Assembly (NCBI GenBank): GCA_963668695.2
Contig: CAXXLQ010000004.1
Coordinates: forward strand, 3,136,001-3,200,000
Length of the DNA: 64,000 nt
Direction: 5' to 3'
Origin: Vicinamibacteria bacterium
Lineage (GTDB): Bacteria > Acidobacteriota > Vicinamibacteria > Marinacidobacterales > Marinacidobacteraceae
Position numbers and translations under genes: made by a program. Of this stretch, positions 2,010 through 61,591 are shown in pieces. The stretch's first letter is position 1, and each line of letters starts with the position of its first letter. The notes under the pieces are model-generated. The model was not told the origin of the DNA. It saw only the letters and a program-made list of their open reading frames with translations, and did no database searches.

Positions 2010-2351
2010 ACAACCTTTGGACAAAGTGACGTGAGCGCCGAGGACGGCCAGTCCTCCCGGTGGGGGCGAGGCCCAGTTCTCCCGGTGGGGCCAGTCCTCC
2101 CGGTGGGGGCCCGGCTGACAAGGCGCGTGAGGGAGGAGCCCCCACCGGGAGAATTGGCCCGGGTGGTTTTCGACCGAAACGCAACGATGAGCGGCGCGCA
2201 GCGACGGGGTCAGCCGGGATGCATCGCCGGCCGAGCCCCCACCGGGAGAACTGGGCCGCGTGGGTTTCATCACCGGCTGTTCGGCCGGGATGCATCGCCG
2301 GCCGAGCCCCCACCGGGAGAACTGGGCCGCGTCACTTTGTCCACAGACTGC
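2010..2351. mobile_element. Family A MITE-like element with six U-unit inserts
   Basis: Terminal inverted repeat TGGACAAAGTGAC/GTCACTTTGTCCA; core GGCTGACAAGGCGCGTGAGGGAGGA..TTCGACCGAAACGCAACGATGAGCGGCGCG. Confidence 0.8.
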
Positions 2352-2356
2352 TTGGA

Positions 2357-3790
2357 TCAGGGGAAAATCCCGAGTTCCTCGTAGGAAAGCCGGATCTTCT
2401 CGAGGGCCACGACGTAGGCCGCGGTTCTGAGCGTCCCGCACTCTGGGAACCGCGTCCTGGCCTCCCGGATTTCGTCGTAGGCGCGCGTCATCTTCTCTTC
2501 CAGGCCGCTCACCACGAGTTCCTTTTCGTCGGACTGGGTGACCAGGTTCTGCCGCATTTCCGGACTCAGACGCCGGCCGGAGAGCGTTTCCGCCGCGTTC
2601 AGCAAGGCATTCGTGTTGGCGATTTCGAGCCGCTTCTCGAGGAGACCGAAACGCATGTGAGACAGATTGCGCGCCCATTCGAAGTAGGACACCACGACCC
2701 CGCCCGCATTCAGGTAGACATCCGGAATGACCGGAATGCCGCGCTCCCGGAGGATGCGGTCACCCTCCGGAGTCGTCGGGCCGTTCGCGGCCTCGGCAAC
2801 GAGCTTCGCGCGCACTCGCGGAGCGGTCTCGCCATGGATCACGTTCTCGATGGCCGCCGGGACCAGCACGTCGCAATCCACTTCCAGGACCGCTTCTGGA
2901 GGCAGTTCTTGCTCCGCATCGGGGAATCCCTTGATCGTGCCGTGTTCCGAGCGCCACTCCAGAAGATCCGGTATCGAGATCCCCCGGCCGGAGCGGACGA
3001 CGACCGTAGCGTCCCACTCGCCGATGGCGACGACCTTCGCGCCGCGGCGAGCGAGGATGTCGGCGGTGTGGAAGCCGACGTTGCCGAAACCCTGAATGGC
3101 GACCTCCTTGCCCGGCAGCCCGCGCGTTAACCCGCTTCCGGGAAAGTCCTCGACAAAGTCGAGTCCCCGCGCGAGACCCAGCACGACGCCGCGCCCGGTG
3201 GCGTCCTCACGTCCCCGGATTCCGCCCTGGGTAACGGGTTTGCCGGTGACACACGCGAAATTGTCGATGCCGCCGGGATGCAGCGCGTCGTAGGTGTCCG
3301 CGATCCAGGCCATCTCGCGAGGTCCCGTCCCAAGATCGGGCGCCGGAACGTTTACGCCGGGACCGATGAAGTTCTTGCGGATCAGCTCCGCGGTGTAACG
3401 CCGGGTGATGCGCTCCAACTGTTCCGGGCTGTAGCGACGCGGGTCGAAGGCGATGCCGCCCTTCGAACCTCCAAAGGGTACGTTGACGATGGCGCACTTG
3501 TAGGTCATCAGCGCCGAGAGCGCACTGATTTCCTGTTGATTCACCAGCGGGCTATAGCGAATACCGCCCTTGAGCGGATGGCGGTGGTGGCTGTGCTCCG
3601 CCCGCCAGCCGGAGAACACCTCCACGCGGTTCCCGAACTTGACCGGGAACCGCGTGTAGTAGATCGAGTCCGTGATACAGATCTGATTGAGCAGACCCTC
3701 CGGAAGCTCTAGCGCCCGCGCCGCCTCGTGGACCAGCCCGTGAACGCTTCGCTCGAGATCGAGATCCCTGGCCGCACCGTTCGTCGTCAT
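2357..3790 (-). CDS. gdhA: Glu/Leu/Phe/Val dehydrogenase, probably glutamate dehydrogenase
   Basis: KGGIRY, MTYKCA, GGSKGG, VPAPD, GFGNVG Rossmann motif, EAANGP, NAGGVVVSYFEW. Confidence 0.92.
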   Translation of the reverse strand: MTTNGAARDLDLERSVHGLVHEAARALELPEGLLNQICITDSIYYTRFPVKFGNRVEVFSGWRAEHSHHRHPLKGGIRYSPLVNQQEISALSALMTYKCAIVNVPFGGSKGGIAFDPRRYSPEQLERITRRYTAELIRKNFIGPGVNVPAPDLGTGPREMAWIADTYDALHPGGIDNFACVTGKPVTQGGIRGREDATGRGVVLGLARGLDFVEDFPGSGLTRGLPGKEVAIQGFGNVGFHTADILARRGAKVVAIGEWDATVVVRSGRGISIPDLLEWRSEHGTIKGFPDAEQELPPEAVLEVDCDVLVPAAIENVIHGETAPRVRAKLVAEAANGPTTPEGDRILRERGIPVIPDVYLNAGGVVVSYFEWARNLSHMRFGLLEKRLEIANTNALLNAAETLSGRRLSPEMRQNLVTQSDEKELVVSGLEEKMTRAYDEIREARTRFPECGTLRTAAYVVALEKIRLSYEELGIFP

Positions 3791-6124: not shown

Positions 6125-6152
6125 TTGCGTCGATTCCAAGCCTATATATCCT
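6125..6152 (+). promoter_or_regulatory. Candidate sigma70 promoter for the DUF349 gene
   Basis: TTGCGT-16 nt-TATCCT, 15 nt upstream of ATG 6168, in a divergent intergenic region. Confidence 0.35.
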
Positions 6153-6167: not shown

Positions 6168-9125
6168 ATGTCCGTACTCGAGCGATTCGCCTCTCCGCTG
6201 CGAAGCCGCGACGCCGCCGTCCGTGTCAAGGCTGTTCAGAAACATCCCCCGGAGGACACCGCAGCGCTGGCGGAGCTCGCCCGTTCAGATCCGGATGCGC
6301 GGGTCCGCAAGGAGGCAGTGCGCCGCATCGAGGCGCCGCGCGTCCTGCTTGACCTCACGGACAGCGCCGGCGATGACGCCACCCGGCGTCTCGCCCGATC
6401 GCGCGCGGAATCGCTACTCGTCAAGATCGCTGCCGACGATCGGGATCTCGGAGAATCGCAGCGCGCGCTCGGACTCCTTGCCCCGCCGCGCGCGGTGGCC
6501 GAAGTGGCGTGCCGGGCGCGCTTCGAGGCGGTTCGCTTCGACGCACTCGCGCGCCTGACCACCGGACCGGCGGCGGGCGCGGAACGGGACGGTGCGGTCG
6601 CCACGGTGGCCGGAAAGGCCGCCGACCCTGCCCTTCGGAGTCAGGCTCTCGAGGCGATCGTCAGTCCGGCCGGCCTGCTTCAGGTGGCGATTTCCGCCGA
6701 GGATCGCGAGAGTGCCCAAGCGGCGGTCCGGCGGTTGGAAGATCCCGAGTCGCTGCTCGCCGCGGCAAGCAACGCCAGTTTCAAGGGGGTCCGCCGGCTC
6801 GCCCGGCGTCGAGCCGACGAACGCCTGCCACCAGATCATCCCGAGCGGGTGCGGTCGCGCGAGAAGGCCCTTGGTGGCCTGTTGGAACGCCTGGCCGAGG
6901 CCGACCCGGCCAACTCCGGTCAGAATGCGACCCTTCTCGCCGAAGCGGACGAGGTCGCGGCCTCGGGCCCCGCCGCCCCGGAATTCATCACCCGGCTGGC
7001 GGCGCTGCGCGAGACCGTTCAGGGCGGGGGCGCCCCTCACCCGCGCGCCGCGCGTCTGTTGATCCCGGAAGCAACCCTTCCGGCATTCAATCAGTCGGCG
7101 CCCCTCGAAGACACGGAACCACCTCCGGACCTCTCACCGGAGATCGAGGAAATCTTCACCCGGCTGGAAGATCCGGGGGATGGCCTGAGCCTGGACGAGG
7201 TGGACTCCGCCGAGCGGGAATGCGGCCGGCTGCTCGAGAGGATTGCGCGCGCCGGCGCCGCTCGCTCCCGACTCCGGGCGGCGGCGGACGGCGCCCGGGC
7301 ACGGGCGCTGCAGCGCAAGAAGGCCCGAATTCGGGAATTCGAGACGGTCGAACTGGCGGACCACGCCGCACTGCTTGCGAAGTCACTCGAAAACCCCCGC
7401 TCCGGCCCGGAACTCGCACAGGCTCGCCGCGAACTGACGCGTCTCGTGCGGCGGTTCGAGCGCCTGGAACCAGCGGAGACACCGGACACCGAGCGGTTCC
7501 GCAACGCTGCCCGCGGCGTAGAGACCGCGCTCAGCAGCGCCGAAGCGGCACGAAAGGACCACCTCCGACAGTCCGAGGAGCGGATTGCCGCGCTCGAGGA
7601 GCGACTCGGGACGCTGGAGTCATCCGAATCTTTCCCACTCGAGGAAGGTGAGGCGGTGCTTCGCGAACTCGGCGGCCTCCGCAGCAACGCGTCTCTCTGG
7701 CGGCAGGTCGGGCCCGAGCGGCAGGCACGTTTTCAGCGCTCCCAAGCTGCACTCATCCCGAGGCTGCGGGAGGCGCGGGAGATTCGGGAATGGCGTCACT
7801 GGTCGAATCTTGAAGAGCAGTCGGCACTCATTCGCCGAGCCCGGGCGCTCATGGAAGACGACGACCTCCAGCGCGTGGAGCGGGAACTCACGCTTCTCGA
7901 ACGCGCGTGGCACAAGGCCCGGCACACGGGACGCGACCGGGGTCAGGAACTCTGGGAAGAATGGGGGAAGGTCCGGGAAGCACTGCTCGAGCGCGTCGGC
8001 CCGTTGCGCGAAGCCGCGGAGCGCGAACTGGCCCTGCAACTGGAGGGGCTCCGGGCGCTCGCGGAAAAGGCGGAGGAGATCGCCGACGGCAAGGATCCGC
8101 GCCAAGGCGCCGAGATGCGCGCCCTGATGCCCGCCTGGCGAGAGCGCGCCCGGGGAATCGGGAAACGCTCCGAACGCTTGTGGAAGCGGTTTCGCGCTGC
8201 CAACGACCGATATTTCACCGAACTCAAGGTACTGGGAAAGAAACGGTACGAAGAGTTCGCCGCGAACATCCCGATCCGGGACGAACTGATCGGCCGCGCC
8301 CGGGCGCTCTTCGACCAAACGGACGCCGCGGCGGTGCGCGAAGCGGTGCGTGATCTGATGCGGGAGTGGAAGGAGTCGCCGCCCGTCCCGCGCAAGGAAA
8401 GCGAGCGCCTCTGGGACGAATTCCGGACCGCCTGCGACACCGCGCGGGATCGCCTCCGGGAGAAACCGGAAAACCCGAACTCGGGCTCCAGCGAAGCCCA
8501 GGAACACTCTCCGCCGAGGGAAGCGGAAGCCGACCTCCGCACCCGCATCGCGGAACTGGCTGCCCAACCGGCCGGAGAGCGGCGCGACGCCGCGATTTCG
8601 CTTTGGGATGACTATCGGCGGATTACCCGCTCCACCGACCGATTGGCCCGGGAAACCGACCGCGCGTTGCTCGACGTTCTGCGGGAGACCTTCGAAGCGG
8701 ATCCCGAGACCTTTGCCGGCACCCGCCTGGACCAGGAGCAACTCGCCGCGCGTCTGGAAGGCTTGCTGGAAGCGGTCGAGACGCTGGCGGCACCTCGCGC
8801 CTCCGCGCCGTCGGACGCCGGAGTCGTCGGCATTGTGGAACATCTGCAACGCACTCTGCAGGCGGGACGGGCGGCGGACCGCGGGGCAGTCCTGCGGGAA
8901 GACGCACAGGCCGCGACCCAGATTCTGGAGCGAGCCCGCGCTGCCGGTCCGGCGCTCGCCGACCCCACGGTGGAAACCGTAAAGCGGATCGAAGGGCTGG
9001 CCCGGAAGGTCATTGCCCGGGCGCCATCAGCCGAAGAGCAGCCACGGGACCGCGGGCGCGGAGACCGCGGGCGCGAGGACCGCGGGCGCGGGCGTACTCG
9101 CGGGCGACGCCCACCGAGGCCTTAG
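6168..9125 (+). CDS. Large DUF349-domain helical protein with N-terminal HEAT-like repeats
   Basis: Repeated W..G..PR..SE.LW..FR.A.D motifs (ERLWKRFRAANDRYF, ERLWDEFRTACD); N-terminal DPDARVRKEAVRRI; ATG 6168 chosen over TTG 6117. Confidence 0.75.
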   Translation: MSVLERFASPLRSRDAAVRVKAVQKHPPEDTAALAELARSDPDARVRKEAVRRIEAPRVLLDLTDSAGDDATRRLARSRAESLLVKIAADDRDLGESQRALGLLAPPRAVAEVACRARFEAVRFDALARLTTGPAAGAERDGAVATVAGKAADPALRSQALEAIVSPAGLLQVAISAEDRESAQAAVRRLEDPESLLAAASNASFKGVRRLARRRADERLPPDHPERVRSREKALGGLLERLAEADPANSGQNATLLAEADEVAASGPAAPEFITRLAALRETVQGGGAPHPRAARLLIPEATLPAFNQSAPLEDTEPPPDLSPEIEEIFTRLEDPGDGLSLDEVDSAERECGRLLERIARAGAARSRLRAAADGARARALQRKKARIREFETVELADHAALLAKSLENPRSGPELAQARRELTRLVRRFERLEPAETPDTERFRNAARGVETALSSAEAARKDHLRQSEERIAALEERLGTLESSESFPLEEGEAVLRELGGLRSNASLWRQVGPERQARFQRSQAALIPRLREAREIREWRHWSNLEEQSALIRRARALMEDDDLQRVERELTLLERAWHKARHTGRDRGQELWEEWGKVREALLERVGPLREAAERELALQLEGLRALAEKAEEIADGKDPRQGAEMRALMPAWRERARGIGKRSERLWKRFRAANDRYFTELKVLGKKRYEEFAANIPIRDELIGRARALFDQTDAAAVREAVRDLMREWKESPPVPRKESERLWDEFRTACDTARDRLREKPENPNSGSSEAQEHSPPREAEADLRTRIAELAAQPAGERRDAAISLWDDYRRITRSTDRLARETDRALLDVLRETFEADPETFAGTRLDQEQLAARLEGLLEAVETLAAPRASAPSDAGVVGIVEHLQRTLQAGRAADRGAVLREDAQAATQILERARAAGPALADPTVETVKRIEGLARKVIARAPSAEEQPRDRGRGDRGREDRGRGRTRGRRPPRP

Positions 9126-9307
9126 CAGCCTGTGGACAAAGTCACGCGGCGTTCGAGCGGCGATGCATCCCGGCTGAACCGCGTCGCTTCGCGTCGCTCA
9201 TCGTTGCGTTTCGGTCGGAATACACCCGGTATTCCTCCCTCACGCGCCTTGTCAGCCGGGCGCCTCACCGCTCTCGGCGCTCACGCCACTTTATCCACAG
9301 GCTGCTA
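9123..9307. mobile_element. Family A MITE-like element, minimal 181-bp form with no U inserts
   Basis: TA|GCAGCCTGTGGACAAAG...CTTTATCCACAGGCTGC|TA; the left TA is part of the upstream TAG stop. Confidence 0.85.
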
Positions 9308-9418
9308 GCCAGCAGCCAGCGGACACGATCACCCGACCCCCTCCCGCCGGCGATGCGCCGGCGATGCATCGTTCGAGGGAGTCCGCCGGCGCGGCCGGCA
9401 AGCCGCTCAATCTCCCGC

Positions 9419-11668: not shown

Positions 11669-11869
11669 GTCGATTCGCGGAGTATAGGAACCAGCAACGA
11701 TGTCGGTCGGGACGGCCGCGGCTGGCATGAATTCGGTTGCGCGCTTCCCTGAGGCGTTCCCCTCAGGGAAACGGATCCGCGAGTGACCGCCCGCCTAGCG
11801 GCGGTGCCGGTCTGAAGGCTCCCACCGGGAGGACTGGCCGGCGCGTCCAGGGCTACAATCGCCAGCCGC

Positions 11870-15769: not shown

Positions 15770-16331
15770 CAGCCTATGGTGAAACCCAGGTGAGCGCCGA
15801 GGTCGGCCAGTCCTCCCGGTGGGGGAGGCGCCCGGCCGACACGGCGGGCGGCGGGAAGGACCCCCAGTGCGGGGGGGCCTTTCCGGCCGGGAGCCCGGCG
15901 TTCAGCGTCATCCGGACGGTGGCGTGGTACACGCCTTTCGCTGCGCTTTGCGCAGCGGTGCCGGCCCCCACCGGGAGAACTGCCCAGAGGTCGGCGTTCC
16001 AAGCCGTCCCCGCGCTTGAAGCGCGGTGGAGTACTGCCGAGCGCGCAAAAACAATGGCAGCGAACTTTGTTCGCTGCCCGCGTGACCGGGGGGAAAGTGT
16101 GAAAGGGGGGCACCCCCCCCCCTTTCACAAATCAACAATGACCAATCGGAACTCGCCGCCGCGCGCCGCAGGCGCGCAAGGGAGTTTCGATTGCCGGCGC
16201 GAAGCGCCGGGCGGTCCCCGGACGGGGCCCCAACTCCAAGCAGGACTACGACCGAAAGCTATTCCAGATCAAGGCCCCGTCCGGGGACCGCTCGACCCTG
16301 ATTGCCGCGTGGGTTTTGCCACAGGCTGTTA
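15767..16331. mobile_element. Family A termini enclosing a family B structured repeat
   Basis: TA|ACAGCCTATGGTGAAACCC ... GGGTTTTGCCACAGGCTGT|TA, with the B module at about 15960-16300 inside. Confidence 0.75.
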
Positions 16332-18001: not shown

Positions 18002-18478
18002 GTGACCTCTCCTCCCGCCGACGCCACTCAGGTTTCGATCCGCGTCCGCTATGCCGAGACCGATCAGATGGGGGTGGGCTACCACGGCGCCTACCTTCCC
18101 TGGCTTGAGGTAGCGCGGACCAGTTGGTTGCGGAAACACGCGCTGCCCTACCGGGAGCTGGAGGCGAGCGGCTTCCACTTTCCGGTGATCGAAGTGCGGT
18201 GCCGCTATCTGCGGCCGGTCCGCTACGACGACGACCTCATCGTGGAGGCCCAGGCGTTCCCCTACCGGCGGTCGGGTATCGGCTTTGCCTATCGAATCCT
18301 GCGCCCTTCCGATGGGACGCTGGTCGCCACTGCCGAAACGCGGCATGCAACGGTTGGGACGGACGGGCGGGCGCGCCGCTTGCCCCAATCGGTCCGCGGA
18401 GCGTTAACAGCCTGTGGTGAAACCCACGTGAGCGCCGAGACGGGCGAGGCCCAGTTCTCCCGGTGGGGGTCGGGCTGA
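18002..18478 (+). CDS. Acyl-CoA thioesterase (YbgC/4HBT hotdog family); C-terminus runs into a family A element
   Basis: RVRYAETDQMGVGYHGAYLPWLEVAR motif; start uncertain (TTG 17951 or GTG 18002). Confidence 0.85.
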   Translation: MTSPPADATQVSIRVRYAETDQMGVGYHGAYLPWLEVARTSWLRKHALPYRELEASGFHFPVIEVRCRYLRPVRYDDDLIVEAQAFPYRRSGIGFAYRILRPSDGTLVATAETRHATVGTDGRARRLPQSVRGALTACGETHVSAETGEAQFSRWGSG

Positions 18479-18809
18479 CAAGGCGCGCAAGGGAGGAATA
18501 CCGAGTGTATTTCGACCGAAGCGCAACGCAGAGCACCGCGAAGCGGGGCGGTTCAGCCGGGATGGATCGCCCGTCGAACGCCGGGTGGGTTTTGCCACAG
18601 GCTGTTAACAGCCTGTGGTGGAACCCGGGTGAGCGCCGAGAGCGGGGAGGCTCAGTTCTCCCGGTGGGGGTCCGGCTGACAAGGCGCGTGAGGGAGGAAT
18701 ACCGGGTGTATTTCGACCGAAACGCAACGATGAGCGGCGCGAAGCGACGCGGTTCAGCCGGGATGGATCGCCGGCCAGAACGCCGCGTGGGTTTCACCAC
18801 CGGCTGTTA
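18405..18809. mobile_element. Two tandem family A elements sharing a central TA
   Basis: TA|ACAGCC..GGCTGT|TA|ACAGCC..GGCTGT|TA with the junction at 18606-18607. Confidence 0.85.
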
Positions 18810-18878
18810 AGCAGCCTGTGAAGAAATGCCGGCCAGACGCTAGCATTTCGTGAGCCGCGGCATCCGCCGCTCCATGCC

Positions 18879-27961: not shown

Positions 27962-28416
27962 TAGCAGCCTGTCGATAAAGTGGCGTGAGCGCCGAGAGCG
28001 CCAGTTCTCCCGGTGGGGGCGAAGCCCAGTTCTCCCGGTGGGGGTCCGGCTGACCAGGCGCGCGAGGGAGGAGCCCCCACCGGGAGAACTGGCCCGGGTG
28101 TATTTCGAACGAAGCGCAACGATGAACGAGGCGAAGCGGAGTGTTTCAGCCGGGATGGATCGCCGCTCGAGCAGCCTGTGGTGGAACCCGGGCGAGCGCC
28201 GAGGCCGGTGAGGCGCCCGGCTGACAAGGCGCGTGAGGGAGGAGCCCCCACCGGGAGAACTGGCCCGGGTGTATTTCGACCGAAACGCAACGCAGAACGT
28301 AGCGAAGCGGAGTGGTTCAGCCGGGATGGATCGCCGGCCGAACGCCGGCTGGGTTTCACCACAGGCTGCTAGCCCCCACCGGGAGAACTGGGCCGCGAGA
28401 CTTTGTCCACCGGCTG
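27962..28416. mobile_element. Composite family A elements with U inserts
   Basis: TA|GCAGCCTGTCGATAAAG start, internal GCAGCCTGTGGTGGAACCC, end CAGGCTGC|TA at 28370, plus an extra right-end remnant. Confidence 0.8.
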
Positions 28417-28556: not shown

Positions 28557-29477
28557 GTGGTGGACGAGAACGAGTTCCTCGGCGCCGCGGAAACGTCGGC
28601 AACGGGCGATCGGGTGCGGCTCTGGTTTGGCTCGGCGGGCGCCCGGCGACGGCTGGCGGCTCGTCTCGACGCGCTGGTCGAGTCCAAAAGGCCAGCCGCG
28701 GCGGCCCGAGAATCCGAATTCCCGCTGCACGGCGTCACCGTCCGGCATGCGCCTCCCGAACCGGCACGCGACTGGACGGCACGATATCGCGAGCTTTTTT
28801 CCGGGGTGCGGGCGGCTGGATTCTTCATTCACCCACCCCACATTCCGGCGGTGCCCGGGTTCCGGTCGCTCCTTCTCACACCCGGACTGGCCTTCGGCAC
28901 CGGAGTCCACGCCACGACCCGCATGGTTCTGGAATCGCTCGAAGAACACCTCAGCGCCCGCCAGTCGCGGACGCGCGTTCTCGACATCGGGACCGGATCG
29001 GGAATTCTTGCCGTCGCGGCCGCGCTGCTCGGAGCAAGGACGGTTGTGGGCCTCGACCAGGACCCCACGGCGATTCGCGCTGCGGAAGAAGCCGCGGCGG
29101 CGAACAGCCTGGTTGGCAGGATCCTGTTCCGTGCCGGAGACTATCGGGATCCGGACCTGGCGGCCGATCTGCACCCGCTGGCTCCCCGCGGCTTCGATGT
29201 AATCCTCGCCAATCTGTCGGCCAAACCCCTGACGGATTTTTGGGAATTCGCCGCGCCCCAGCTGCGGTCGCGAGGCCGGATTCTCATCTCGGGATTCCTC
29301 CGTGAAGAGGCGTCCCGCGTATTGGGCGCCTTCCCCGGACGATCGGTCAGATTGGCGGAAATCCGAATGGAGCTACCCGAACACCCCGAAACCGACACCT
29401 GGGTCGCGGCCGCGCTGGAGCGCCGAGAGAGCGAACGTTCCGCGCCGGAAGACCGAGCCGCCGCCACTCGCTTCTAG
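28557..29477 (+). CDS. prmA: Ribosomal protein L11 methyltransferase (start uncertain)
   Basis: PGLAFGTGVHATT, VLDIGTGSGILA, DVILANL, ISGF; position between dnaJ and rsmE. Confidence 0.88.
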   Translation: MVDENEFLGAAETSATGDRVRLWFGSAGARRRLAARLDALVESKRPAAAARESEFPLHGVTVRHAPPEPARDWTARYRELFSGVRAAGFFIHPPHIPAVPGFRSLLLTPGLAFGTGVHATTRMVLESLEEHLSARQSRTRVLDIGTGSGILAVAAALLGARTVVGLDQDPTAIRAAEEAAAANSLVGRILFRAGDYRDPDLAADLHPLAPRGFDVILANLSAKPLTDFWEFAAPQLRSRGRILISGFLREEASRVLGAFPGRSVRLAEIRMELPEHPETDTWVAAALERRESERSAPEDRAAATRF

Positions 29478-29713
29478 CAGCCTGTGGTGAAACTCACGCG
29501 GCCCAGTTCTCCCGGTGGGGGCTCGAGCGGCGATGCATCCCGGCTGAACCGCCCCCCCACCGGGAGAACTGGCGCTTTGCGGCGCTCTGCGTTGCGCTTC
29601 GGTCGAAATACACTCGGGCCAGTTCTCCCGGTGGGGGCTCCTCCCTCGCGCGCCTTGTCAGTCGGGCGCCTCCCCGCTCTCGGCGCTCACGCCAGTTCCA
29701 CCACAGGCTGCTA
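29475..29713. mobile_element. Family A element with three U inserts, filling the prmA-rsmE gap
   Basis: TA|GCAGCCTGTGGTGAAAC...GTTCCACCACAGGCTGC|TA; the left TA is in the prmA stop. Confidence 0.85.
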
Positions 29714-29715
29714 GC

Positions 29716-30485: not shown

Positions 30486-30688
30486 TAGCAGCCTGTGGTG
30501 AAACCCAGGCGGCCCAGTTCTCCCGGTGGGGGCTCGGCCGGCGATCCATCCCGGCTGAACCGCGTCGCTTCGCGCCGCTCATCGTTGCGTTTCGGTCGAA
30601 ATACACTCGGTATTCCTCCCTCACGCGCCTTGTCAGCCGGGCGCCTCACCGGCCTCGGCGCTCACCCGGGTTCCACCACAGGTTGCTA
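30486..30688. mobile_element. Family A element with one U insert
   Basis: TA|GCAGCCTGTGGTGAAACCC...GGGTTCCACCACAGGTTGC|TA. Confidence 0.85.
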
Positions 30689-38479: not shown

Positions 38480-39260
38480 GCCGGCCCCCACCGGGAGAAC
38501 TGGCCAGAGGTCGGCGTTCCCCTGCCCGGCCGCGCTCGGAGTGCATCGGCCGTGAGCGGTTTCGCCCGCGTTCCGGGAGCGATGCCGGTGTGAACACCGG
38601 CGTTCCCCGTACGCGCTGCCCTTCCGGTGGGTCGGCGCATCGCTCTACGCGCAAAAACTGATGGCGGCGAACGCCGTTCGCTGCCCACCAGATCGGGGGG
38701 TGGGTGTGGGCGGGGGCACTCCCCCGCCCACAAGAAGGTAAAGACAAATCGGAACTCGCCGCAGCGCGCCTACGGCGCGCAAGGGAGTTTCGATTTCCGG
38801 CGCGAAGCGCCGGGCGGTTCGGGAACCGGGGTGCGACGCCCAACTTCTCTGATAGCACATCGGTACCTGCCCGATCTCTCGTCGCACTCCGGTTACCGGA
38901 ACGCTCGACTCCGAGGCGCGAAGCGCCGGGCGGTTCGGGAACCGGGGTGCGACGCCCAACTTCTCTGATAGCACATCGGTACCTGCCCGATCTCTCGTCG
39001 CACTCCGGTTACCGGAACGCTCGACTCCGAGGCGCGAAGCGCCGGGCGGTTCGGGAACCGGGGTGCGACGCCCAACCTCTCTGACAGCACATCGGTACCT
39101 GCCCGATCTCTCGTCGCACTCCGGTTACCGGAACGCTCGACTCCGAGGCGCGAAGCGCCGGTCGGTCCGGTAGCGGGGTGCGACGCCTGGTCGCCCCTGA
39201 GATCTCCCCATCATGCGACCAGATCACCCCGTCGCACCCCGTTACCGGACCGCGCGAGGC
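38480..39260. repeat. Family B structured repeat with its 116-bp module amplified (three near-identical copies plus one diverged)
   Basis: GGCGCGAAGCGCCGG units start at 38799, 38915, 39031 and 39147 (period 116). Confidence 0.9.
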
Positions 39261-40996
39261 TCAGGCTCCTGTTGAAGGATGCAGTGAATCCCGCCGCCAC
39301 CCAGGTTGACGGCGATCGCGTCGAGGGCGAGCACTTCCCGGCCCGGAAACACCTCGGCCAGGATGGCGAGTGCCCGTTCATCCTTGGCGCGCACGCTCTC
39401 GGGCATTCCCGCCTTCCAGTATTTCTGGGCCAGGACGAGCCCGTTCGTGATCTGGAAGTTGAGATAGCTCGCGGCCGCGATGACCCGGATCTCGCCCTCG
39501 GGATCGATCCGGGATCCGTCTTCGTAGTCGAGCGGCTGAATGTAGTCGAACACCCCGTCGCCTTTCCGCATCGTGTCGAGAAGGGAATCCGGAACCGGCA
39601 TCCGCACAATCCGGAAGGGGTTGCCGTCCTGATCCGTCGCGGCGCGGAGTCTCCGGAAGCTCTCCTCCAGGCGCTCATGGCTGATGGCGGCGATGGGATC
39701 CGTCTGCCGTTCCTCTTCCGTTATCTCGGCGAGGAGGATGGTTTCCGGGTCGGCAAACCGGGCGAACTCGTCCACGTGACCGCCGGTGGTGATGACGGTG
39801 TAGACGTCCCCGGGGAGCCGGCCGCGGAAGGTGAGTTCGTCTTCCGCCATTCCTTCGGCAAGCCAGATGACTTTGGAGACCCCCAGGACCCGGCGGAACT
39901 CCTCTGCCGTGGCTTCGAGGGTCCACCCGGGATTGCGTTGGAGTTCCACCGCCTCCACCGCGATCATCACGCCCCGGCCGTTGAACTCCCGGGAGCCTCC
40001 TTCGCTGATGAGCGATGACTTCTCGACGTCGAGATCGAGCAGTTCCGCGATGTGCCGGTCAACCGCCTCTTCAAGTCTGGAGTTGGCGCTCTCCGGCGAT
40101 TCATAGCCCCACATGTTGAAGCCGAAGTCGGCGATCCGGAGTCCGCCCCGATCGCCGCGCAGGAAAATGGGCCCCATGTCCCGCATCCAGACATCGCCGT
40201 GGGGCACGCTGTGAATGGTCACGTGACCACCGGGGACCCCCTCCCGCCGGAAGCGATCGCGGATGGCGCCGGCTTCGTCGTCGTCCTGGGCCAGCAGTTC
40301 GATCGCCACCCGACCCTCGGCGGCGCGGATGATTTCGATCAGCAGCGGTTCGGTCGGCAACCCGCGCTTGTTCTCGTAGGTCGGCCACGCCATCCAGAGG
40401 GCCCGGTGGGGCTCGAACTCCGCCGGAAAGACGAACGCCTCCCCGAGCGGACCCATCACCGGTTCGCCACTCGGCGCTCCCCCGCACGACCAGAGTCCGA
40501 GCGCCAGCAGAGCGGGCGGGATTCGTAGCAGCCGGTGGTGAAACCCGGGTGAGCGCCGAGGCCGGGGAGGCCCAGTTCTCCCGGTGGGGCCAGTTCTCCC
40601 GGTGGGGGCCCGGCTGACAAGGCGCGTGAGGGAGGAATACCGAGTGTATTTCGACCGAAACGCAACGATGAGCGGCGCGCAGCGACGCGGGTAACGGCCG
40701 GTGGTGGAACCCGGGTGAGCGCCGAGGCCGGGGAGGCCCAGTTCTCCCGGTGGGGCCAGTTCTCCCGGTGGGGGCCCGGCTGACAAGGCGCGTGAGGGAG
40801 GAATACCGAGTGTATTTCGACCGAAACGCAACGATGAGCGGCGCGTAGCGACGCGGTTCAGCCGGGATGGATCGTCGGCCGAACGCCGCGCGGGTTTCAT
40901 TACAGGCTGTTTGGCCGGGATGGATCGCCGGCCGAACGCCGCCTGGGTTTCACCACCGGCTGCTAGGGCGCTGCGACCGCTAGTCGAACACCACAT
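39242..40996 (-). CDS. aguA: Agmatine deiminase (PPAD family), predicted lipoprotein, with a 438-bp in-frame element insertion in its signal peptide
   Basis: FPAEFEPH, WMRDMGP, EGGS, GHVD, SYLNF, GGGIHCILQQEP; lipobox LWSC; ATG 40996 lies 7 nt after TATAGT; start assignment is inference. Confidence 0.85.
   Translation of the reverse strand: MWCSTSGRSALAAGGETQAAFGRRSIPAKQPVMKPARRSADDPSRLNRVATRRSSLRFGRNTLGIPPSRALSAGPPPGELAPPGELGLPGLGAHPGSTTGRYPRRCAPLIVAFRSKYTRYSSLTRLVSRAPTGRTGPTGRTGPPRPRRSPGFHHRLLRIPPALLALGLWSCGGAPSGEPVMGPLGEAFVFPAEFEPHRALWMAWPTYENKRGLPTEPLLIEIIRAAEGRVAIELLAQDDDEAGAIRDRFRREGVPGGHVTIHSVPHGDVWMRDMGPIFLRGDRGGLRIADFGFNMWGYESPESANSRLEEAVDRHIAELLDLDVEKSSLISEGGSREFNGRGVMIAVEAVELQRNPGWTLEATAEEFRRVLGVSKVIWLAEGMAEDELTFRGRLPGDVYTVITTGGHVDEFARFADPETILLAEITEEERQTDPIAAISHERLEESFRRLRAATDQDGNPFRIVRMPVPDSLLDTMRKGDGVFDYIQPLDYEDGSRIDPEGEIRVIAAASYLNFQITNGLVLAQKYWKAGMPESVRAKDERALAILAEVFPGREVLALDAIAVNLGGGGIHCILQQEPEPRAVR
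40526..40965. mobile_element. Composite family A element inside the aguA 5' coding region
   Basis: TA|GCAGCCGGTGGTGAAACCC...GGGTTTCACCACCGGCTGC|TA; four U inserts. Confidence 0.88.
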
Positions 40997-43865: not shown

Positions 43866-44298
43866 CCGTGGGGAAAGCACCCCGCACGATTCCCGGAACG
43901 GTACGGGCAGCGATTCCGGCGACTTGTGCGCGTGCGCGGCGCTTCCCCCACGGGGGGATACCGCGCATCGCTCCGCGATCCGCGCCATCGTCTTCCGTGG
44001 GGCGGGGAAACCCCTCCCCACGCCCCTCCCCCGCGGCGCTCCGCGCCGCGAATGGACCGCACCAGAGTTTCGCCACCGCACACTCCGTGGGAAAAGCACC
44101 CCGCACGATTCCTGGAACGGTACGTGCGGCGATTCCGGCGATTTGTGCGCGTGCGCGGCGCTTTCCCCACAGGGGGATAGCGCGCATCGCTCCGCGATCC
44201 GCGCCATCGTCTTCCGTGGGGAGGGGAGACCCCTCCCCACGCCCGTCCCCCGCAGCGCTGCGCGCCGCGAATGGACCGAACCAGTGTTTCGCCACCGC
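43866..44298. repeat. Family C: two tandem hairpin-rich units of about 219 bp
   Basis: CCGTGGG(G/A)AAAGCACCCCGCACGATTCC starts at 43866 and 44085; internal hairpin CGTGGGGAGGGGAGACCCCTCCCCACG. Confidence 0.85.
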
Positions 44299-46326: not shown

Positions 46327-46903
46327 GTCGGTGGTGGAACCCGGGTGAGCGCCGAGGCCGGTGAGGCGCCCGGCTGACAAGGCGCGTGAGGGAGGAATAC
46401 CCGGTGTATTTCGACCGAAACGCAACGATGAGCGGCGCGAAGCGACGCGGTGAACAGCCGGTGATGGAACCCGCGTGAGCGCCGAGGCCGGCCAGTCCTC
46501 CCGGTGGGGGCGAGGCACCCGGCTGACAAGGCGCGTGAGGGAGGAGCCCCCACCGGGAGAACTGGCCCGGGTGTATTTCGACCGAAACGCAACGATGAGC
46601 GGCGCGCAGCGACGCGGTTCAGCCGGGATGGATCGCCGGCCGAGCCCCCACCGGGAGAACTGGGCCACGTGGGTTTCATCACCGGTTGTTTGGCCGGGAT
46701 GGATCGCCGGCCGAGCCCCCACCGGGAGAACTGGGCCACGTGGGTTTCATCACCGGTTGTTTGGCCGGGATGGATCGCCGGCCGAGCCCCCACCGGGAGA
46801 ACTGGGCCGCGCGGGTTTCATCACAGGCTGTTTGGCCGGGATGGATCGCCGGCCGAGCCCCCACCGGGAGAACTGGGCCGCCTGGGTTCCACCACCGGCT
46901 GCT
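46327..46903. mobile_element. Composite family A element with four tandem 71-bp terminal units, between thrS and infC
   Basis: GCCGGGATGGATCGCCGG units at 46622, 46693, 46764 and 46835. Confidence 0.85.
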
Positions 46904-46910
46904 CGGCCGC

Positions 46911-48960: not shown

Positions 48961-49035
48961 TGGTAGGCGCGGGCGGATTTGAACCGCCGACTTCTACCGT
49001 GTCAAGGTAGCGCTCTCCCCCTGAGCTACGCGCCT
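48961..49035 (-). tRNA. tRNA-Val(GAC)
   Basis: Reverse complement AGGCGCGTAGCTCAG..CTACC-TTGACAC-GGTAG..GGTTCAAATCC..CGCGCCTACCA. Confidence 0.96.
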
Positions 49036-49053: not shown

Positions 49054-49306
49054 TAGCAGCCTGTGCACAAGATCACGCGGCCCAGTTTGGGGCCCCGGCC
49101 GGCGATGCATCCCGGCTGAAACGATCCGCTTGGCGTCTCTCGTCGTTGCGCTTCGGTCGAAATACACCAGGGCCGGTTCTCCCGGTGGGGGCTCCTCCCG
49201 CGCGCGCGTTGTCAGCCGGGCCCCCACCGGGAGGACTAGCCCCACCGGGAGAACTGGGCCTCGCCCGCCAACCTCGGCGCTCACGTCACCTGGTCCACCG
49301 GCCGCT
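49054..49306. mobile_element. Degenerate family A element upstream of tRNA-Val
   Basis: TA|GCAGCCTGTGCACAAG start, A core, three U-like inserts, decayed right end. Confidence 0.75.
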
Positions 49307-52697: not shown

Positions 52698-53586
52698 TAA
52701 CAGCCTGTGGTGAAACCCACGTGAGCGCCGAGACCGGCGAGGCGCCCGGCTGACAAGGCGCGTGAGGGAGGAGCCCCCACCGGGAGAACTGGCCCGGGTG
52801 TATTTCGACCGAAACGCAACGATGAGCGGCGCGCAGCGACGCGGTTCAGTCGGGATGGATCGCCGGTCGAACGCCGTGTGGGTTTTGCCACAGGCTGTTA
52901 ACAGCCTGTGGTGGAACCCGGGTGAGCGCCGAGGCTGGCCAGTTCTCCCGGTGGGGGCGAGGCGCCCGGCTGACAAGGCGCGTGAGGGAGGAATACCTGG
53001 TGTATTTCGACCGAAACGCAACGACGAGCGGCGCGCAGCGACGCGGTTAACAGCCTGTGGTGGAACCCGCGGGAGCGCCGAGGCCGGCGAGGCCCAGTTC
53101 TCCCGGTGGGGCCAGTTCTCCCGGTGGGGGCCCGGCTGACAAGGCGCGTGAGGGAGGAGCCCCCACCGGGAGAACTGGCCCGGGTGTATTGCGACCGAAA
53201 CGCAACGATGAGCGGCGCGCAGCGACGCGGTTCAGCCGGGATGGATCGCCGGCCGAGCCCCCACCGGGAGAACTGGGCCGCGTGGGTTTCATCACCGGTT
53301 GTTTGGCCGGGATGGATCGCCGGCCGAACCCCCACCGGGAGAACTGGGCCGCGCGGGTTTCATTACAGGCTGTTCAGCCGGGATGGATCGCCGGCCGAGC
53401 CCCCACCGGGAGAACTGGGCCGCGCGGGTTTCATCACAGGCTGTTCAGCCGGGATGGATCGCCGGCCGAACCCCCACCGGGAGAACTGGGCCGCGCGGGT
53501 TTCATCACAGGCTGTTTGGCCGGGATGGATCGCCGGCCGAACCACCACCGGGAGAACTGGGCCGCGCGGATTCCACCACCGGCTGT
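52698..53586. mobile_element. Largest family A composite: three elements plus five tandem 71-bp terminal units
   Basis: TTAACAGCCTGTGG starts at about 52697, 52898 and 53047; 71-bp units at 53235, 53306, 53377, 53448 and 53519. Confidence 0.88.
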
Positions 53587-57332: not shown

Positions 57333-57620
57333 CAGCCTGTGGTGGAACCCGGGTGAGTGCCGAGGACGGCGAGGCGCCCGGCTGACAAGGCGCGTGAGGG
57401 AGGAGCCCCCACCGGGAGAACTGGCCCGGGTGTATTCCGACTGAAACGCAACGACGAGCGGCGCGAAGCGACGCGGTCAGCCGGGATGGATCGCCGGCCG
57501 AGCCCCCACCGGGAGAACTGGGCCGCCTGGGTTTCATCACCGGTTGTTTGGCCGGGATGGATCGCCGGCCGAGCCCCCACCGGGAGAACTGGGCCGCCTG
57601 GGTTTCACTACAGGCTGCTA
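57330..57620. mobile_element. Family A element fused to the OMP2 stop codon, with a duplicated 71-bp end
   Basis: TA|GCAGCCTGTGGTGGAACCC...GGGTTTCACTACAGGCTGC|TA. Confidence 0.85.
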
Positions 57621-57699
57621 GCGCCGCGGGACGGCCGGTGCGGGCCGTCTGACGGCACTCAGGTTGACCGGGCCCCACGCCATCGCCGCAGGTTTCGCG

Positions 57700-58220
57700 C
57701 TCCCGCGCGACGCCGGGCCCCACCGGGAGAACTGCCCAGAGGTCGGCGTTCCAAGCCGCCCCCGCGCTCCTTCTCGGGCGGCGTGGGAGCGGTTTCCGCT
57801 GTCGCGCGCGCTCCACGCGGTTCGGCAGTACGCGCCTCGCAGGCAGCGCATAGCTGACCGCGCTAAACAAATGGCGGCGAACCGGAGGTTCGCCGCCTGC
57901 GTGTCCGGGGGGAATGTGTGCAAGGGGGGCTCGCCCCCCTTTCACACGAAGGTAACGACGCATCGGAACTTGCCGCCGCGCGCCGGAGGCGCGCAAGGAA
58001 GTTTCGATGCCCGGCGCGAAGCGCCGGGCGGTTCGGGAGGGGGGGCTCTATCCCCTCCTACTCGACAATCCGGACTGATCCAACGATGTGCCCCCGCTCC
58101 CGGAACGCTCGACCCCTGGGCGCGAAGCGCCGGGCGGTTCGGGAGGGGGGGCTCAGTTCCCTCCCACTCGACAATCCGAACTGATCCAACGATGTGCCCC
58201 CCCTCCCGGAACGCTCGACC
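57700..58220. repeat. Family B structured repeat with a duplicated terminal module
   Basis: Same hairpin series as copies at 1.2, 16.1 and 38.7 kb; two GGCGCGAAGCGCCGGGCGGTTCGGGAGGGGGGG modules. Confidence 0.85.
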
Positions 58221-59479: not shown

Positions 59480-61077
59480 GCCGACTCCAGGCTCGGCTCC
59501 GGAACTGCCGAGTCGGCCAGGAACTCGTGAGCGGCACCGGCCTCGGCATCGGATTCACCCCCGACGGTTTCCGGAAGAAGCTCGAACTGCGGCTCCGGCA
59601 GCGCCGGTGCATCTTCGATCGCCACCGGGCCGGCCACCACCGTCCGAATCTCCGCGAGGACAGCGGACCGGCGAAGCGCCGAAGCCACCAACGGAGCGGC
59701 GCGGATCAGGAGTCCGGAAGCGAACTGCGCCGACTTCTTTTGTGCGCGGACCAGCACGTCCTGGCAGACCGCGCCGAGCGACCGGACCCGGCCGGATCCC
59801 TTGCAGGCCGGACAGGCGGCCAACAGGGCGGACTCAAGCGAGGGGCGCTCGCGCTTCCGGGTGATGATGACGAGCCCGGCGCGCGATTCCGGTGGAGCCA
59901 CGCGGGTGAAAGCGGGGTCGCGGCGCAACTCGGCTTGCAGGCTGCGGAAGACGCGATCCCGATTCCGCCCCTCCTTCATATCGATGAAATCGATCACGAT
60001 GATTCCCCCGAGTCCGCGCAACCGGAGCTGTCGCGCGGTCTCCACCGCGGCTTCGAGATTCGTGATCGTGTTCGTTTCGTCGCGCTCCGCGGTGTCTCCG
60101 CTGAAGCTTCCGGTATTGACGTCCACCGCTACCAGCGCTTCCGTCTGATCGATGACGATCGAGCCCCCCGAGGGCAGGCGAACCCGCCGCCGGGCGGCCT
60201 GCTCGAAGGCGGACTCGACTCCATACTCCTCGAAGATCGGATAGTTCCGCGAGTAGAGCCGAACGTTGTGCTCCATCCCCGGGAGGAACTGGCGGATGAA
60301 GTTCACCATCCGTCCGTACAGCGTTTCGTTGTCGACCCGGATCACGCTGAAACCCGAGGAGAGCACATCCCGGATATACCGGAACACCATCGGGACCTCG
60401 GCCCGGAGGCAGGCCGGCGGACCGGAGAGACTCTCCTTCCGGATCTGTACCCAGTCGGCCTCCAGCCGCGTTATGTCGGCAGCGAGGGTCTCTTCGTCGC
60501 GCTGCTCCGCGGTAGGGCGCGCTACCCATTCCCCTTTCAGGGTGGTCAGGCGTTCGACCAGCGCTGCGATACGAAGCTGTTCGCGGGGTCCCGCCGTCGC
60601 CCGCGAGGTGATTACATTCGTGGGGGCGAGGGGCCGAAAATCGAAGAAACGCCCCTGGAGATTGAGATCGCAACTGACCTTGTAGCCCTTCGGCCCCAAG
60701 GGTTCCCGGACCACCTGTACCAACGCGGACTGCCTCGGCCGCAGCAGGTTCTCGAGACGAAAACCGGAACTCCCGGCATCGGCTCCGCTCCCTCCCCCGC
60801 CCTTTCCGGCTTCCGGCACCCGCCCCTCATCCCGCCAGGCGTCGAGCGCACCTTGGGGAATCTGGTCCACCTGCAAGAAGGCGTTGCGGTGCAGCCCAAT
60901 GTCCAGGAAGGCTGCCTGGGTACTCGGCATGACGCGCTGTACCCGGCCGCGGTAAATCCCGTGCAGGACGCTCTGCTCGGAGCGGTGCTCGACACCGAGT
61001 TCCACCACCACCCCATCCTCAAGGAGTGCCATTCGGGTCTCACCCGGAAGACTGGTGACGATCAGTTCTCGATACAC
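59476..61077 (-). CDS. rng: Rne/Rng family ribonuclease (RNase G-like)
   Basis: IYRGRVQRV, AFLDIG, GGSIVIDQTEAL, DVNTG, RQLRLRGLGGIIVIDFIDM, CPACKGSG. Confidence 0.9.
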   Translation of the reverse strand: MYRELIVTSLPGETRMALLEDGVVVELGVEHRSEQSVLHGIYRGRVQRVMPSTQAAFLDIGLHRNAFLQVDQIPQGALDAWRDEGRVPEAGKGGGGSGADAGSSGFRLENLLRPRQSALVQVVREPLGPKGYKVSCDLNLQGRFFDFRPLAPTNVITSRATAGPREQLRIAALVERLTTLKGEWVARPTAEQRDEETLAADITRLEADWVQIRKESLSGPPACLRAEVPMVFRYIRDVLSSGFSVIRVDNETLYGRMVNFIRQFLPGMEHNVRLYSRNYPIFEEYGVESAFEQAARRRVRLPSGGSIVIDQTEALVAVDVNTGSFSGDTAERDETNTITNLEAAVETARQLRLRGLGGIIVIDFIDMKEGRNRDRVFRSLQAELRRDPAFTRVAPPESRAGLVIITRKRERPSLESALLAACPACKGSGRVRSLGAVCQDVLVRAQKKSAQFASGLLIRAAPLVASALRRSAVLAEIRTVVAGPVAIEDAPALPEPQFELLPETVGGESDAEAGAAHEFLADSAVPEPSLESA

Positions 61078-61177
61078 AGGACGTCCAAATAAACGCGAAA
61101 AGGGATTCGCCGAAACCGTAGCACGGAAGAGATCGGATCGGTCCGGGAGGCGTCGGTGCGGGAGGCGCCCGAAACGC

Positions 61178-61591
61178 TAGCAGCCTGTGGTGGAACCCAC
61201 GTGAGCGCCGAGGTCGGGGAGGCCCAGTTCTCCCGGTGGGGCCAGTCCTCCCGGTGGGGGCCCGGCTGACAAGGCGCGTGAGGGAGGAATACCTGATGTA
61301 TTTCGACCGAAACGCAACGCAGAACGGAGCGAAGCGGAGTGGTGAACAGCCGGTGGTGGAACCCACGTGAGCGCCGAGGTTGGCCAGTCCTCCCGGTGGG
61401 GGCGAGGCCCAGTTCTCCCGGTGGGGCCAGTCCTCCCGGTGGGGGCCCGGCTGACAAGGCGCGTGAGGGAGGAATACCGGGTGTATTCCGACCGAAACGC
61501 AACGATGAGCGGCGCGGTTCAGCCGGGATGCATCGCCGGCCGAGCCCCCACCGGGAGAACTGGGCCGCGTGGGTTTCGCCACAGGCTACTA
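61178..61591. mobile_element. Composite family A element fused to the rodA stop codon
   Basis: TA|GCAGCCTGTGGTGGAACCC...GCCACAGGCTAC|TA; six U inserts. Confidence 0.85.

Follow-up and report, generated by a model that had tools for sequence, protein, structure and literature searches.

A 20-base unit at many sites of a Vicinamibacteria genome, a possible ultra-short mobile module

How does a sequence of only about twenty bases come to stand at dozens of places in one stretch of bacterial DNA? The question is raised by 64,000 bases (the window; C4:3136001-3200000) from a Vicinamibacteria bacterium, in which a short unit recurs inside repeats. An earlier description made from the letters alone (the sequence-only reading) had suggested a mini mobile or templated-insertion system. 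The source genome, G000, is a 4,095,246-base assembly in four contigs with 67.5% G+C, and is compared here with G001, G004, G008 and G014 of the same genus (g1) and with G018 of a different genus. The assembly is redundant in part: contigs C1 and C3 duplicate parts of C4, and the ends of C4 duplicate each other at ~99% identity, which raises every genome-wide count by ~6-7% and also yields an accidental strain-level comparison. The unit is a real and strongly non-random feature, and it is probably an ultra-short mobile module without a gene of its own, defined by the 20-mer CCAGTTCTCCCGGTGGGGGC.

The unit and its junction rule

When the window was searched with the 21-mer GCCAGTYCTCCCGGTGGGGGC at up to two mismatches, 51 matches were found on both strands from 2047 to 61564, against a mean of 0.00 in 100 dinucleotide-preserving shuffled controls, none of which reached 51. 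A manual count of about 54 had been given earlier, and the 18-mer core at up to two mismatches indeed has 54 copies in the window. The genome-wide count that had been proposed along with it came to 1,631 copies in G000 at the same threshold, 1,288 of them exact and 156 with the single variant T6C; removing the redundant parts of the assembly left 1,528 copies, or 0.7% of bases. The strands are used about equally (829 plus and 802 minus), and a check for strand or replichore bias found none, with 200-kb bins at ~1:1 throughout. The Rfam 15 covariance models run over the window returned only two tRNAs at gathering score and no match to the unit.

The main host of the unit, A, is a ~190-base miniature inverted-repeat transposable element (MITE) with five main unit sites, S1 to S5. 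The next commonest 16-mer after masking of A and the unit has 92 copies; it is the motif AACATGTCGCTCTAGC of two arrays with periods of ~63-127 bases (C4:574338-575162 and C4:422963-423091). An insert-free A copy with inverted ends (9121-9310, plus strand) serves as the reference for empty S1-S5, and three comparisons drawn earlier between it and a filled copy (29470-29715) proved letter-exact on re-checking: cacgcggc-GT-tcgagc becomes cacgcggc-CCAGTTCTCCCGGTGGGGGC-tcgagc at S1, aaccgc-GT-cgct becomes aaccgc-CCCCCCACCGGGAGAACTGG-cgct at S2, and cccgg-TAT-tcc corresponds to ctcgg-GCCAGTTCTCCCGGTGGGGGC-tcc at S3.

Genome-wide, where filled and empty states were located by host flanks alone, S1 is empty as GC-GT-T (GCGTT, 133+35 copies) and filled as GC-unit-T (GC+unit+GCT, 203+34 copies), S2 goes from 5 to 23 bases, and S3 goes from CGG-TAT-TC (CGGTATTC and variants, ~230 copies) to CGG-G+unit-TC (CGGG+unit+GCTC, ~220 copies), with a gain of 18 bases in each case. 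S4, empty as GAGGC^GC (5 bases), takes one or two units (23 or 41 bases, +18 or +36), and in small hairpin repeats GTCTT or GTGTT is turned into 23 or 24 bases (+18 or +19). The unit replaces 1-3 target bases, usually two, for a net gain of 18 or 19 bases, and does so in either orientation. Of the earlier description, in which each event added a net 18 bp and overwrote 2-3 nucleotides with no target duplication, the lack of duplication stands and the loss is widened to 1-3 bases; +18 holds at the three quoted sites, and at hairpin repeats and S5 the gain is often +19.

The 1,480 insert blocks of G000 fall into 73 flank-context clusters, 48 of them singletons. The 18-mer is followed by G in 62 and then by C in 57 of 72 clusters, and the true unit is therefore the 20-mer given above. 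Each of the two preceding bases is G in 51 of 72 clusters; the dinucleotide before the unit is mainly GG and otherwise GC or CG, and the targets are G/C-rich. Reading the ends as restriction sites or as a target duplication (GGCC...GGCC, or a 14-base core with a 4-base duplication) did not fit S1 and S4 and was dropped. Of 40 copies with a G at position 1, 31 are followed by CC. This covariation is real, and since it is limited to the related C and E hairpin hosts, a single lineage may lie behind it. Orphan 10-base prefixes of the unit (n = 23) were random in appearance.

Most blocks hold one unit (1,336), with 140 doublets, two triplets, one block of four and one of five. The head-to-tail doublets reported earlier were confirmed with an 18-base period at 2073, 40572, 40738, 53094, 61224 and 61409. 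The unit also targets itself, with hits at its internal CCCGG^T and at its GGGG^GC end that produce unit-in-unit copies and 18-base-period arrays. Units also change internally: one at C4:2611742, kept in four species, has a 12-base internal duplication (CACCGGGAGGAC) in G001 and G004, and another in one G000 haplotype has a 15-base internal deletion, from which decay by slippage follows.

Hosts, occupancy and gains at orthologous places

A folds as a single long imperfect hairpin (z = -6.57) between inverted ends (CAGCCTGTGGACAAAGTCACG and its complement), and 624 A-like loci were counted in G000 after merging. About ten A copies genome-wide hold a different insert of ~90 bases (CCCGAGCC... 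to ...CTCCGGAAG) two bases downstream of S1, which is another nested small element. Units inside A-like loci number 1,224. The other 407 of the 1,631 lie outside them, many in module B, which is the left end of A in tandem (period 53 when empty, 71 when filled), and many in small hairpin repeats unrelated to A, so that the confinement to families A and B described in the sequence-only reading does not hold. These hairpin hosts comprise families C/D, E, F and G, with the unit in either arm and sometimes in both, and in low-copy relatives a unit sits at the apex of a second hairpin. Targets lie very often within or at the centre of short palindromes or in hairpin arms, and paired sites on opposite arms of the A hairpin hold oppositely oriented units. 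Once units are removed, the segments of 388 A copies are uniform in length, which identifies the unit as the only small invader of A. A check for in-frame copies in genes found that gene-like stop-to-stop frames hold 79 of the 1,480 blocks, nearly all of these no more than a few hundred bases from the frame end (upstream extensions), and exactly one is a true in-gene copy.

Occupancy varies in combination, as had been proposed: the 388 A copies with all anchors include 86 empty ones and show more than 40 patterns. For any two sites all four presence/absence combinations occur (odds ratios 1.1-4.2), the two alternative S2 orientations being the one exception. Leaving aside the replaced bases, no A polymorphism with 10 or more minor alleles reaches r2 = 0.1 with occupancy; the A subfamily markers are nevertheless linked to each other across the element (r2 0.4-0.9), and the filled copies therefore do not form a single A subfamily. 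Two objections to independent insertion had been foreseen, that all filled sites might derive from one A subfamily and that the unit might occur in A and B contexts only; the first is contradicted by this lack of linkage, the second by the hairpin repeats and by a unique transporter gene. Insertion of the unit independently of its host repeats is supported.

The transporter gene, of RND type (C4:393138-396336), carries an in-frame reverse-complement unit (PHRENW) in G000 and G001. Here GAGCCCG-CG-CGGGATG has become GAGCCCG-GCCCCCACCGGGAGAACTGG-CGGGATG, a net gain of 18 bases, and the target is the central CG of the palindrome CCCGCGCGGG. The site is empty in G004, G008 and G014 of the same genus and in G018 of another; if these empty states were deletions of a filled ancestor, four independent precise losses, each restoring the palindrome, would be required. 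In the window, a small hairpin repeat of family C/D carries a variant of the unit (CCAGTCCTCCCGGTGGGA; 11818-11838, minus strand) in its 3' arm. The orthologous hairpins of G001 and G004 are empty (gccggtctgaagaccggcgc), which makes this unit a gain in the G000 lineage, with one base turned into 20 (net +19). Since the orthologous sites are empty in outgroup genomes at both the transporter gene and this hairpin, the filled state is the derived one. A further hairpin at C4:2.61 Mb is filled in G000 and empty in G004.

The window is colinear with G001 (blocks of 93-97% identity) and G004 (80-95%), and sites differ in both directions. The A copy at 2001-2340 differs from its G001 orthologue at three sites: S5 and S4 are filled in the window and empty in G001, and at S2 it is the other way round. 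The G001 orthologue of the A copy at 57341-57600 has a clean 36-base doublet at S4 (gaggc^gcccggct). About 290 kb are present twice within G000 (C1, C3, and C4:9000-125000 against C4:3773000-3900000; ~97.6-99.7% identity). Over 260,477 aligned columns of these ~99% identical duplicates there are 40 indels of at least 6 bases, and presence or absence of the unit accounts for ~10 of them, including five of the six that are exactly 18 bases long. Beyond the unit itself, whole A, B or hairpin elements have been gained or lost in nearly every intergenic gap when the window is set against G001 or G004 (~91-94% identical); the coding blocks of the three are colinear, and intergenic turnover is very fast.

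At up to one mismatch the 18-mer was found in each of the 15 further species genomes from the genus, with 8 to ~776 copies each, and copy number among the species of the genus ranges from 8 to ~1,570 with G000 included. Three more genera of the family, g2, g4 and g5, have it too (for example 259 units in G018 and 70 in G019); apart from a single occurrence in g6, genera g3, g6 and g7 lack the unit. In four genera of the family the identical 18-mer outnumbers its variants; it is absent from 16 searched genomes of two sister families. Exact-match records among the matches listed (at least 112 stretches) are metagenome-assembled genomes titled Candidatus Marinacidobacterium, Vicinamibacteria or Acidobacteria bacterium, together with three lone exact matches in unrelated taxa and no cyanobacterial record; a lone 18-mer match in 596 billion bases is unsurprising by arithmetic. 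Other genera have a homologous A element with unit sites partly different from those of G000. The rule of two bases replaced by 20 applies in G018 too, where the empty forms are gac-GA-ggcg and gcg-AA-gcgg, and one G018 array has a unit inserted within a unit after the internal CCCGG.

Within the window, a reverse-oriented A copy with one extra B module (2047-2326) holds six units (2047+, 2072+, 2090+, 2138-, 2235- and 2306-), of which 2072+ and 2090+ form a doublet. An A-related element at 15806-15984 (units 15806+ and 15964-) differs in length and unit number from G001 and G004, and an A-derived 201-base tandem array of 2.1 copies (18403-18820, plus strand) has a unit at 18450. A-family elements at 28000-28392 contain units 28000+, 28025+, 28073-, 28244- and 28372-. 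The A copy at 29477-29711 (plus strand) is filled at S1 (29502+), S2 (29553-) and S3 (29618+), and the entire MITE is missing at the orthologous place in G001. One unit each lies at 30513-30533 (plus strand) and at 38484-38504 (minus strand). An empty 53-base B module in 2.0 tandem copies (31674-31777, plus strand) can be compared with 71-base arrays at 46622-46909 and 53230-53586. The first of these is part of 46491-46909, a region missing from G004, where an A copy (units 46491+ and 46546-) is joined by 4.1 copies of the 71-base B array with a unit in each (46644, 46715, 46786 and 46857, all minus). The second belongs to 52773-53586, where A copies and 5.0 copies of the B array carry units 52773-, 52938+, the doublet 53093+/53111+, 53159-, 53257-, 53328-, 53399- and 53470-. 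At 40531-40962 (plus strand) an A-derived 166-base tandem has a doublet in each copy (40571/40589 and 40737/40755) and is followed by an empty 53-base B array. An inverted pair (49172+ and 49220-) occupies a hairpin repeat at 49172-49240 beside a tRNA gene (48964-49035). The A copy with B modules at 57341-57736 (minus strand) has units at 57405, 57502, 57573 and 57716 and is empty at S4, and A-derived elements at 61223-61564 hold the doublets 61223+/61241+ and 61408+/61426+ as well as units 61383+ and 61544-. Three tandem repeats of the window are unrelated to the unit: 38799-39187 (116 bases) and 58013-58220 (106 bases), which begin alike (GGCGCGAAGCGCCGGGCGGTTCGGGA), and 43866-44298 (219 bases).

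Entry, spread and rival explanations

The individual sites differ in what they hold. S1 inserts defined by flanks alone are identical in 203 of ~215 cases, with a flank identity to consensus of 0.85-0.94, and a uniformity so far above that of the host would fit recent spread or homogenisation. At S4, where the empty site reads GC, single inserts always end in GT and doubles in GC. The frequency of T6C is 1 of 355 at S1, 2 of 322 at S3, 0 of 95 for singles at S4, 87 of 139 for second units of S4 doublets and 50 of 214 at S5; at hairpins C, E and D it is 24 of 95, 6 of 32 and 0 of 36. Junction and variant alleles thus differ from site to site, and much of the spread is therefore probably copy-to-copy transfer together with hitch-hiking on host repeats. 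Gene conversion, offered as an alternative in the sequence-only reading, is upheld to this extent: the site-specific junction dinucleotides and T6C fit donors at the same site better than fresh writing of an invariant sequence.

The same observations speak for the main rival, a passive passenger without dedicated machinery, in which a few chance insertions of ancient date would have been amplified by MITE transposition, ectopic conversion among the ~600 A copies and quasi-palindrome template switching. I regard this account as rather unlikely, and the same holds for its provision that rare new sites arise by a microhomology-driven (CGG / GGC) switch of a replicating strand into one of the many units and back. 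It is favoured by the site-specific junction bases and T6C variant, by haplotype polymorphisms that toggle between known allele classes, by left flanks enriched in GG, GC or CGG as before the unit at donor sites, by palindromic targets with opposite unit orientation on opposite A-hairpin arms, and by the lack of any candidate enzyme in the searches described below. Random switches should carry variable flank, whereas the borders are the same 18-20 bases across 73 contexts, and equally so in a unique gene and outside the genus. The unit is also the only small invader of A, the stripped segments being uniform; arrays of up to five units obey the 2-to-20 rule; and since occupancy is unlinked to markers 5-15 bases away, conversion tracts would have to stop exactly at the unit.

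I lean towards an independently inserting module with some specific mechanism, a reading against which several points have to be set. Most of the ~1,500 copies need not be independent insertions, given that junction and variant alleles are site-specific. On a FastTree tree of 221 unit-stripped A copies, the minimum numbers of changes were 44 at S1, 24 at S3, 20 at S2m and 63 at S4/5, against shuffled means of 67, 65.5, 34.7 and 74.5, and these counts are rough, coming from a 190-base alignment and a poorly resolved tree with the junction columns kept in. The long-range linkage of A markers involves the paired inverted ends, where selection could maintain it and so weaken the contrast with the unlinked unit. 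The polymorphisms between duplicates toggle between pre-existing allele classes, and one of them sits amid six nearby differences in the manner of a conversion tract. This 'haplotype' comparison combines strain variants with what may be assembly artefacts, the contigs being redundant and the checkM-type contamination 9.34%. Logan contigs of four runs (three of unrecorded kind and one of RNA) all end at the repeats; filled/empty polymorphism is not confirmable from short-read contigs that stop there, and read depth over repeat bins is the sum of all copies and hence uninterpretable. Finally, a dedicated mechanism is inferred rather than observed, as no enzyme, template or source copy was found.

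The enzyme classes named in the sequence-only reading were searched for by domain. Pfam RVT_1 (PF00078) had no match in G000 (0 first-look candidates) or in 24 of 28 family genomes, among them the unit-rich G004, G008 and G018, which makes a reverse transcriptase unlikely as the writer. Pfam Y1_Tnp (PF01797) had no match in G000 (two candidates scored) or in three other unit-rich genomes (G004, G018 and G019), and a Y1/HUH enzyme of the type associated with repetitive extragenic palindromes (REP-associated tyrosine transposase, RAYT) is unlikely as well. A source copy beside an enzyme gene, which had also been suggested, was not found, and 30 loci from 71 matches in five low-copy genomes shared no unique context that would mark a conserved single-copy source. 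The exact 18-base-period arrays, the G-rich 3' ends before the unit and the small target losses are what one would expect if a reverse transcriptase or telomerase-like enzyme copied a short RNA template onto broken DNA ends; given the RVT_1 result in G000 and in 24 of the 28 family genomes, G004, G008 and G018 included, that idea is hardly credible.

What can be said of entry starts from the lost target bases, which exclude conservative site-specific recombination and favour non-conservative writing associated with a break or gap. In the proposed scheme, the exchange of 1-3 target bases for the 20-mer would take place at a break or gap. Such de novo entries would be fairly rare, tens of distinct sites per lineage, each seeding a site class. 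A unit inside a multicopy host (A or a hairpin repeat) would then be amplified when the host repeat transposes, and it would also pass, with just its 1-3 junction bases, from one copy of that host to another by very local transfer guided by homology. The unit or its ends would be recognised by a repair pathway or by a factor whose gene lies elsewhere in the genome, and this factor would be neither a Pfam RVT_1 reverse transcriptase nor a Y1/HUH transposase. A stronger version is offered tentatively and may well be wrong: that this marine Vicinamibacteria family has a DNA 'writer' outside the reverse transcriptase and HUH classes, which installs a fixed 20-mer at G/C-rich palindromes and removes two bases. 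Equally speculative is the further part of it, that the writer acts on its own product and homes to the same position in hundreds of diverged host copies.

Orphan suffixes of the unit led to a further element, R, of 150-260 bases, with ~12 complete copies and ~27 3' ends in G000 (C4:2520397-2520618, C4:2157845-2158064, C1:7610-7830 and ~10 more, none in the window). R starts CCAGTT-GCTGTGAAAATGCAG and ends GACCCGATCATGRGGGTT-TCTCCCGGTGGGG; its outermost bases are the two parts of the unit, joined at TT, it is flanked as the units at S1, S3, C and E are, and hairpins lie immediately inside both of its ends, which are not inverted. Derivatives of single-strand transposons are likewise built with hairpins inside their ends and without inverted ends. 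No conserved reading frame was found in R, the small frames being broken by indels between copies, nor a gene within R or a partner end more than 260 bases away. A comparison of eight R copies with Rfam yielded no hit below E = 0.068.

Such an architecture invites the suggestion that R (which begins CCAGTT and ends TTCTCCCGGTGGGG) left the unit behind as a remnant or footprint made up of its ends, and that whatever transposase moves R makes and moves the unit as well: the outer bases of R are both unit parts, its flanks are S1, S3, C and E, and its ends are of the kind just described. I consider this very improbable. The 3' junction of R is confined to g1 (G000 and 10 of 15 relatives) and occurs in none of the unit-bearing genomes of g2, g4 and g5, G018 (259 units) and G019 (70) included; R copies are 75-92% identical to each other, against near-identical units; the R copy at a C-type site bears that site's own variant of the unit ends; and G000 has no Y1 transposase. 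The local variant, together with one copy of the inner part, X, that lacks the unit halves, fits insertion of X into an existing unit. On these four grounds (restriction to g1, divergence, site-specific ends and the X without halves) R is favoured as a unit into which X has nested at TT, over the unit as the joined ends of R, and X is probably a second small mobile element that lands at TT within the unit. Units also invade the internal hairpin of R in five of eight aligned copies.

X was also considered as an IS110-type mini-element with a TT core and this was dropped, the ends showing no likeness. IS110-family elements habitually target REP-like repeats. Their recombinases are present in one copy in G000 (C4:482399-482872) and in up to 11 in relatives (G004, G008 and G018 have loci), and are absent from the unit-bearing G019 and G023; the insertions sit in the loop of hairpin E (GCCGACC^TCCGGTCGGC) and, as a rule, not in or beside units.

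The family-wide conservation of the unit raises the question of function, in that a protein-binding, uptake or translation-initiation signal could owe its abundance to selection. The same 18-mer is commonest in four genera, units are far less diverged than their flanks, and almost all copies are intergenic. At C4:3267755 a reverse-complement unit, kept in place in G000, G001, G004 and G008, puts GGGAG 11 bases before a GTG-initiated frame resembling a first membrane helix, and may have been co-opted as a ribosome-binding site. As a general explanation a selected site is nonetheless improbable: discrete, identical 20-mer insertions need a copying process regardless of selection, both orientations occur in one MITE without strand or replichore bias, and 8 to ~1,570 copies among species of one genus are unlike an essential signal.

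Relation to known systems

Repetitive extragenic palindromes and REPINs, with their RAYTs, resemble the unit in being short, intergenic and present in hundreds of copies, in contributing to hairpins and in having a proposed enzyme encoded elsewhere. As had been argued from the letters, the unit is not palindromic in the REP manner: it has just a 3-base GCC...GGC terminal complement and cannot self-fold as a REP does. It also differs in having no GTAG or CGTC tag, in inserting inside other repeats instead of standing alone, and in that no cognate RAYT (Y1 HUH) gene was found, with no PF01797 match in G000.

The BOX elements of pneumococcus and the bacterial interspersed mosaic elements (BIMEs) of E. 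coli are composite intergenic elements in which a short module occurs in variable number. Their modules vary by tandem duplication within one element type, whereas the unit takes many positions and both orientations, in hosts unrelated to each other and in one gene. BIME is named in PMC2884548.

In motif size, copy number, family-wide conservation and inverted pairs the unit is like the DNA uptake sequences and uptake signal sequences of Neisseriaceae and Pasteurellaceae. These are motifs of 10-30 bases with ~1,500-2,000 copies, conserved within the family and often in inverted pairs; they arise by point mutation and biased uptake and are common within genes. The unit, by contrast, arises as a discrete indel and has one true in-gene copy among 1,480 blocks, which speaks against membership.

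The unit shares with MITEs and with IS200/IS605 derivatives that it is non-autonomous and multicopy. The earlier judgement that it is too short for a MITE was sound: its 20 bases are far below described MITEs, there is no target-site duplication, and 1-3 bases are lost. It also lacks inverted ends beyond GCC...GGC, and it is the host element A that has MITE features. Single-strand derivatives of IS200/IS605 likewise make no target duplication; the unit differs from them in having no room for end hairpins in 20 bases, no Y1 gene, and no lagging-strand bias (829 plus against 802 minus) or replichore pattern. Retroelements are set apart by the lack of a reverse transcriptase in G000, where PF00078 had no match.

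Hardly any mobile DNA below ~50 bases is known, the small dispersed repeats (SDRs) of cyanobacteria being the one precedent. SDR1-8 of Nostoc and relatives are the closest known analogue of the unit. SDRs as described by Elhai and colleagues in 2008 are reportedly 21-27 bases long and nest in other repeats and hairpins. Both kinds of element are very short, gene-less, dispersed and high in copy number (18-20 bases and 1,528 non-redundant copies for the unit), vary in presence at orthologous places, here between species and between near-identical duplicates, and enter precisely into palindromes, hairpins and other repeats, here the centre of CCCGCGCGGG, hairpin arms and apex, and MITE A. In PMC2884548 and PMC5861425, SDRs of heterocyst-forming cyanobacteria are given as ~20 bases long and possibly mobile; PMC4390886 places SDR5 precisely between bases 3 and 4 of the HIP1 palindrome, and PMC3116915 also mentions SDRs. 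An examination of HIP1-rich cyanobacteria in PMC5861425 found SDR-like repeats nowhere but in the Nostocaceae lineage. A full-text literature search whose sources were partly accessible found no mechanism for cyanobacterial SDRs since 2008.

Several percent of the genome consists of the unit and its hosts. They interrupt short-read assemblies wherever a copy lies and drive fast intergenic turnover between species, which is relevant to assembling and comparing these symbiont genomes. As a case of SDR-type mobility the unit is cleaner than the precedent, being a single family with an exact junction rule (two bases replaced by 20). Its system also offers 8 to ~1,570 copies among sister species, directional gains in unique DNA and polymorphic copies that are ~99% identical. 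Because of the single family, the junction rule, the range of loads and the polymorphism, the question of SDR-type mobility becomes testable by comparative genomics and long-read population data. Should the proposed writer exist, no smaller autonomous unit of DNA mobility with a defined junction rule would yet be known, and the SDR phenomenon would have a second, independent lineage. The unit is slightly shorter than SDRs (18-20 against a reported 21-27 bases), forms one family against eight, belongs to Acidobacteriota and not Nostocaceae, shows no sequence likeness to them, and has its own junction rule with 1-3 target bases lost at its sites. Seen beside the cyanobacterial SDRs, the unit appears to be another instance of a rare kind of element, distinct from them in sequence, lineage and junction rule.

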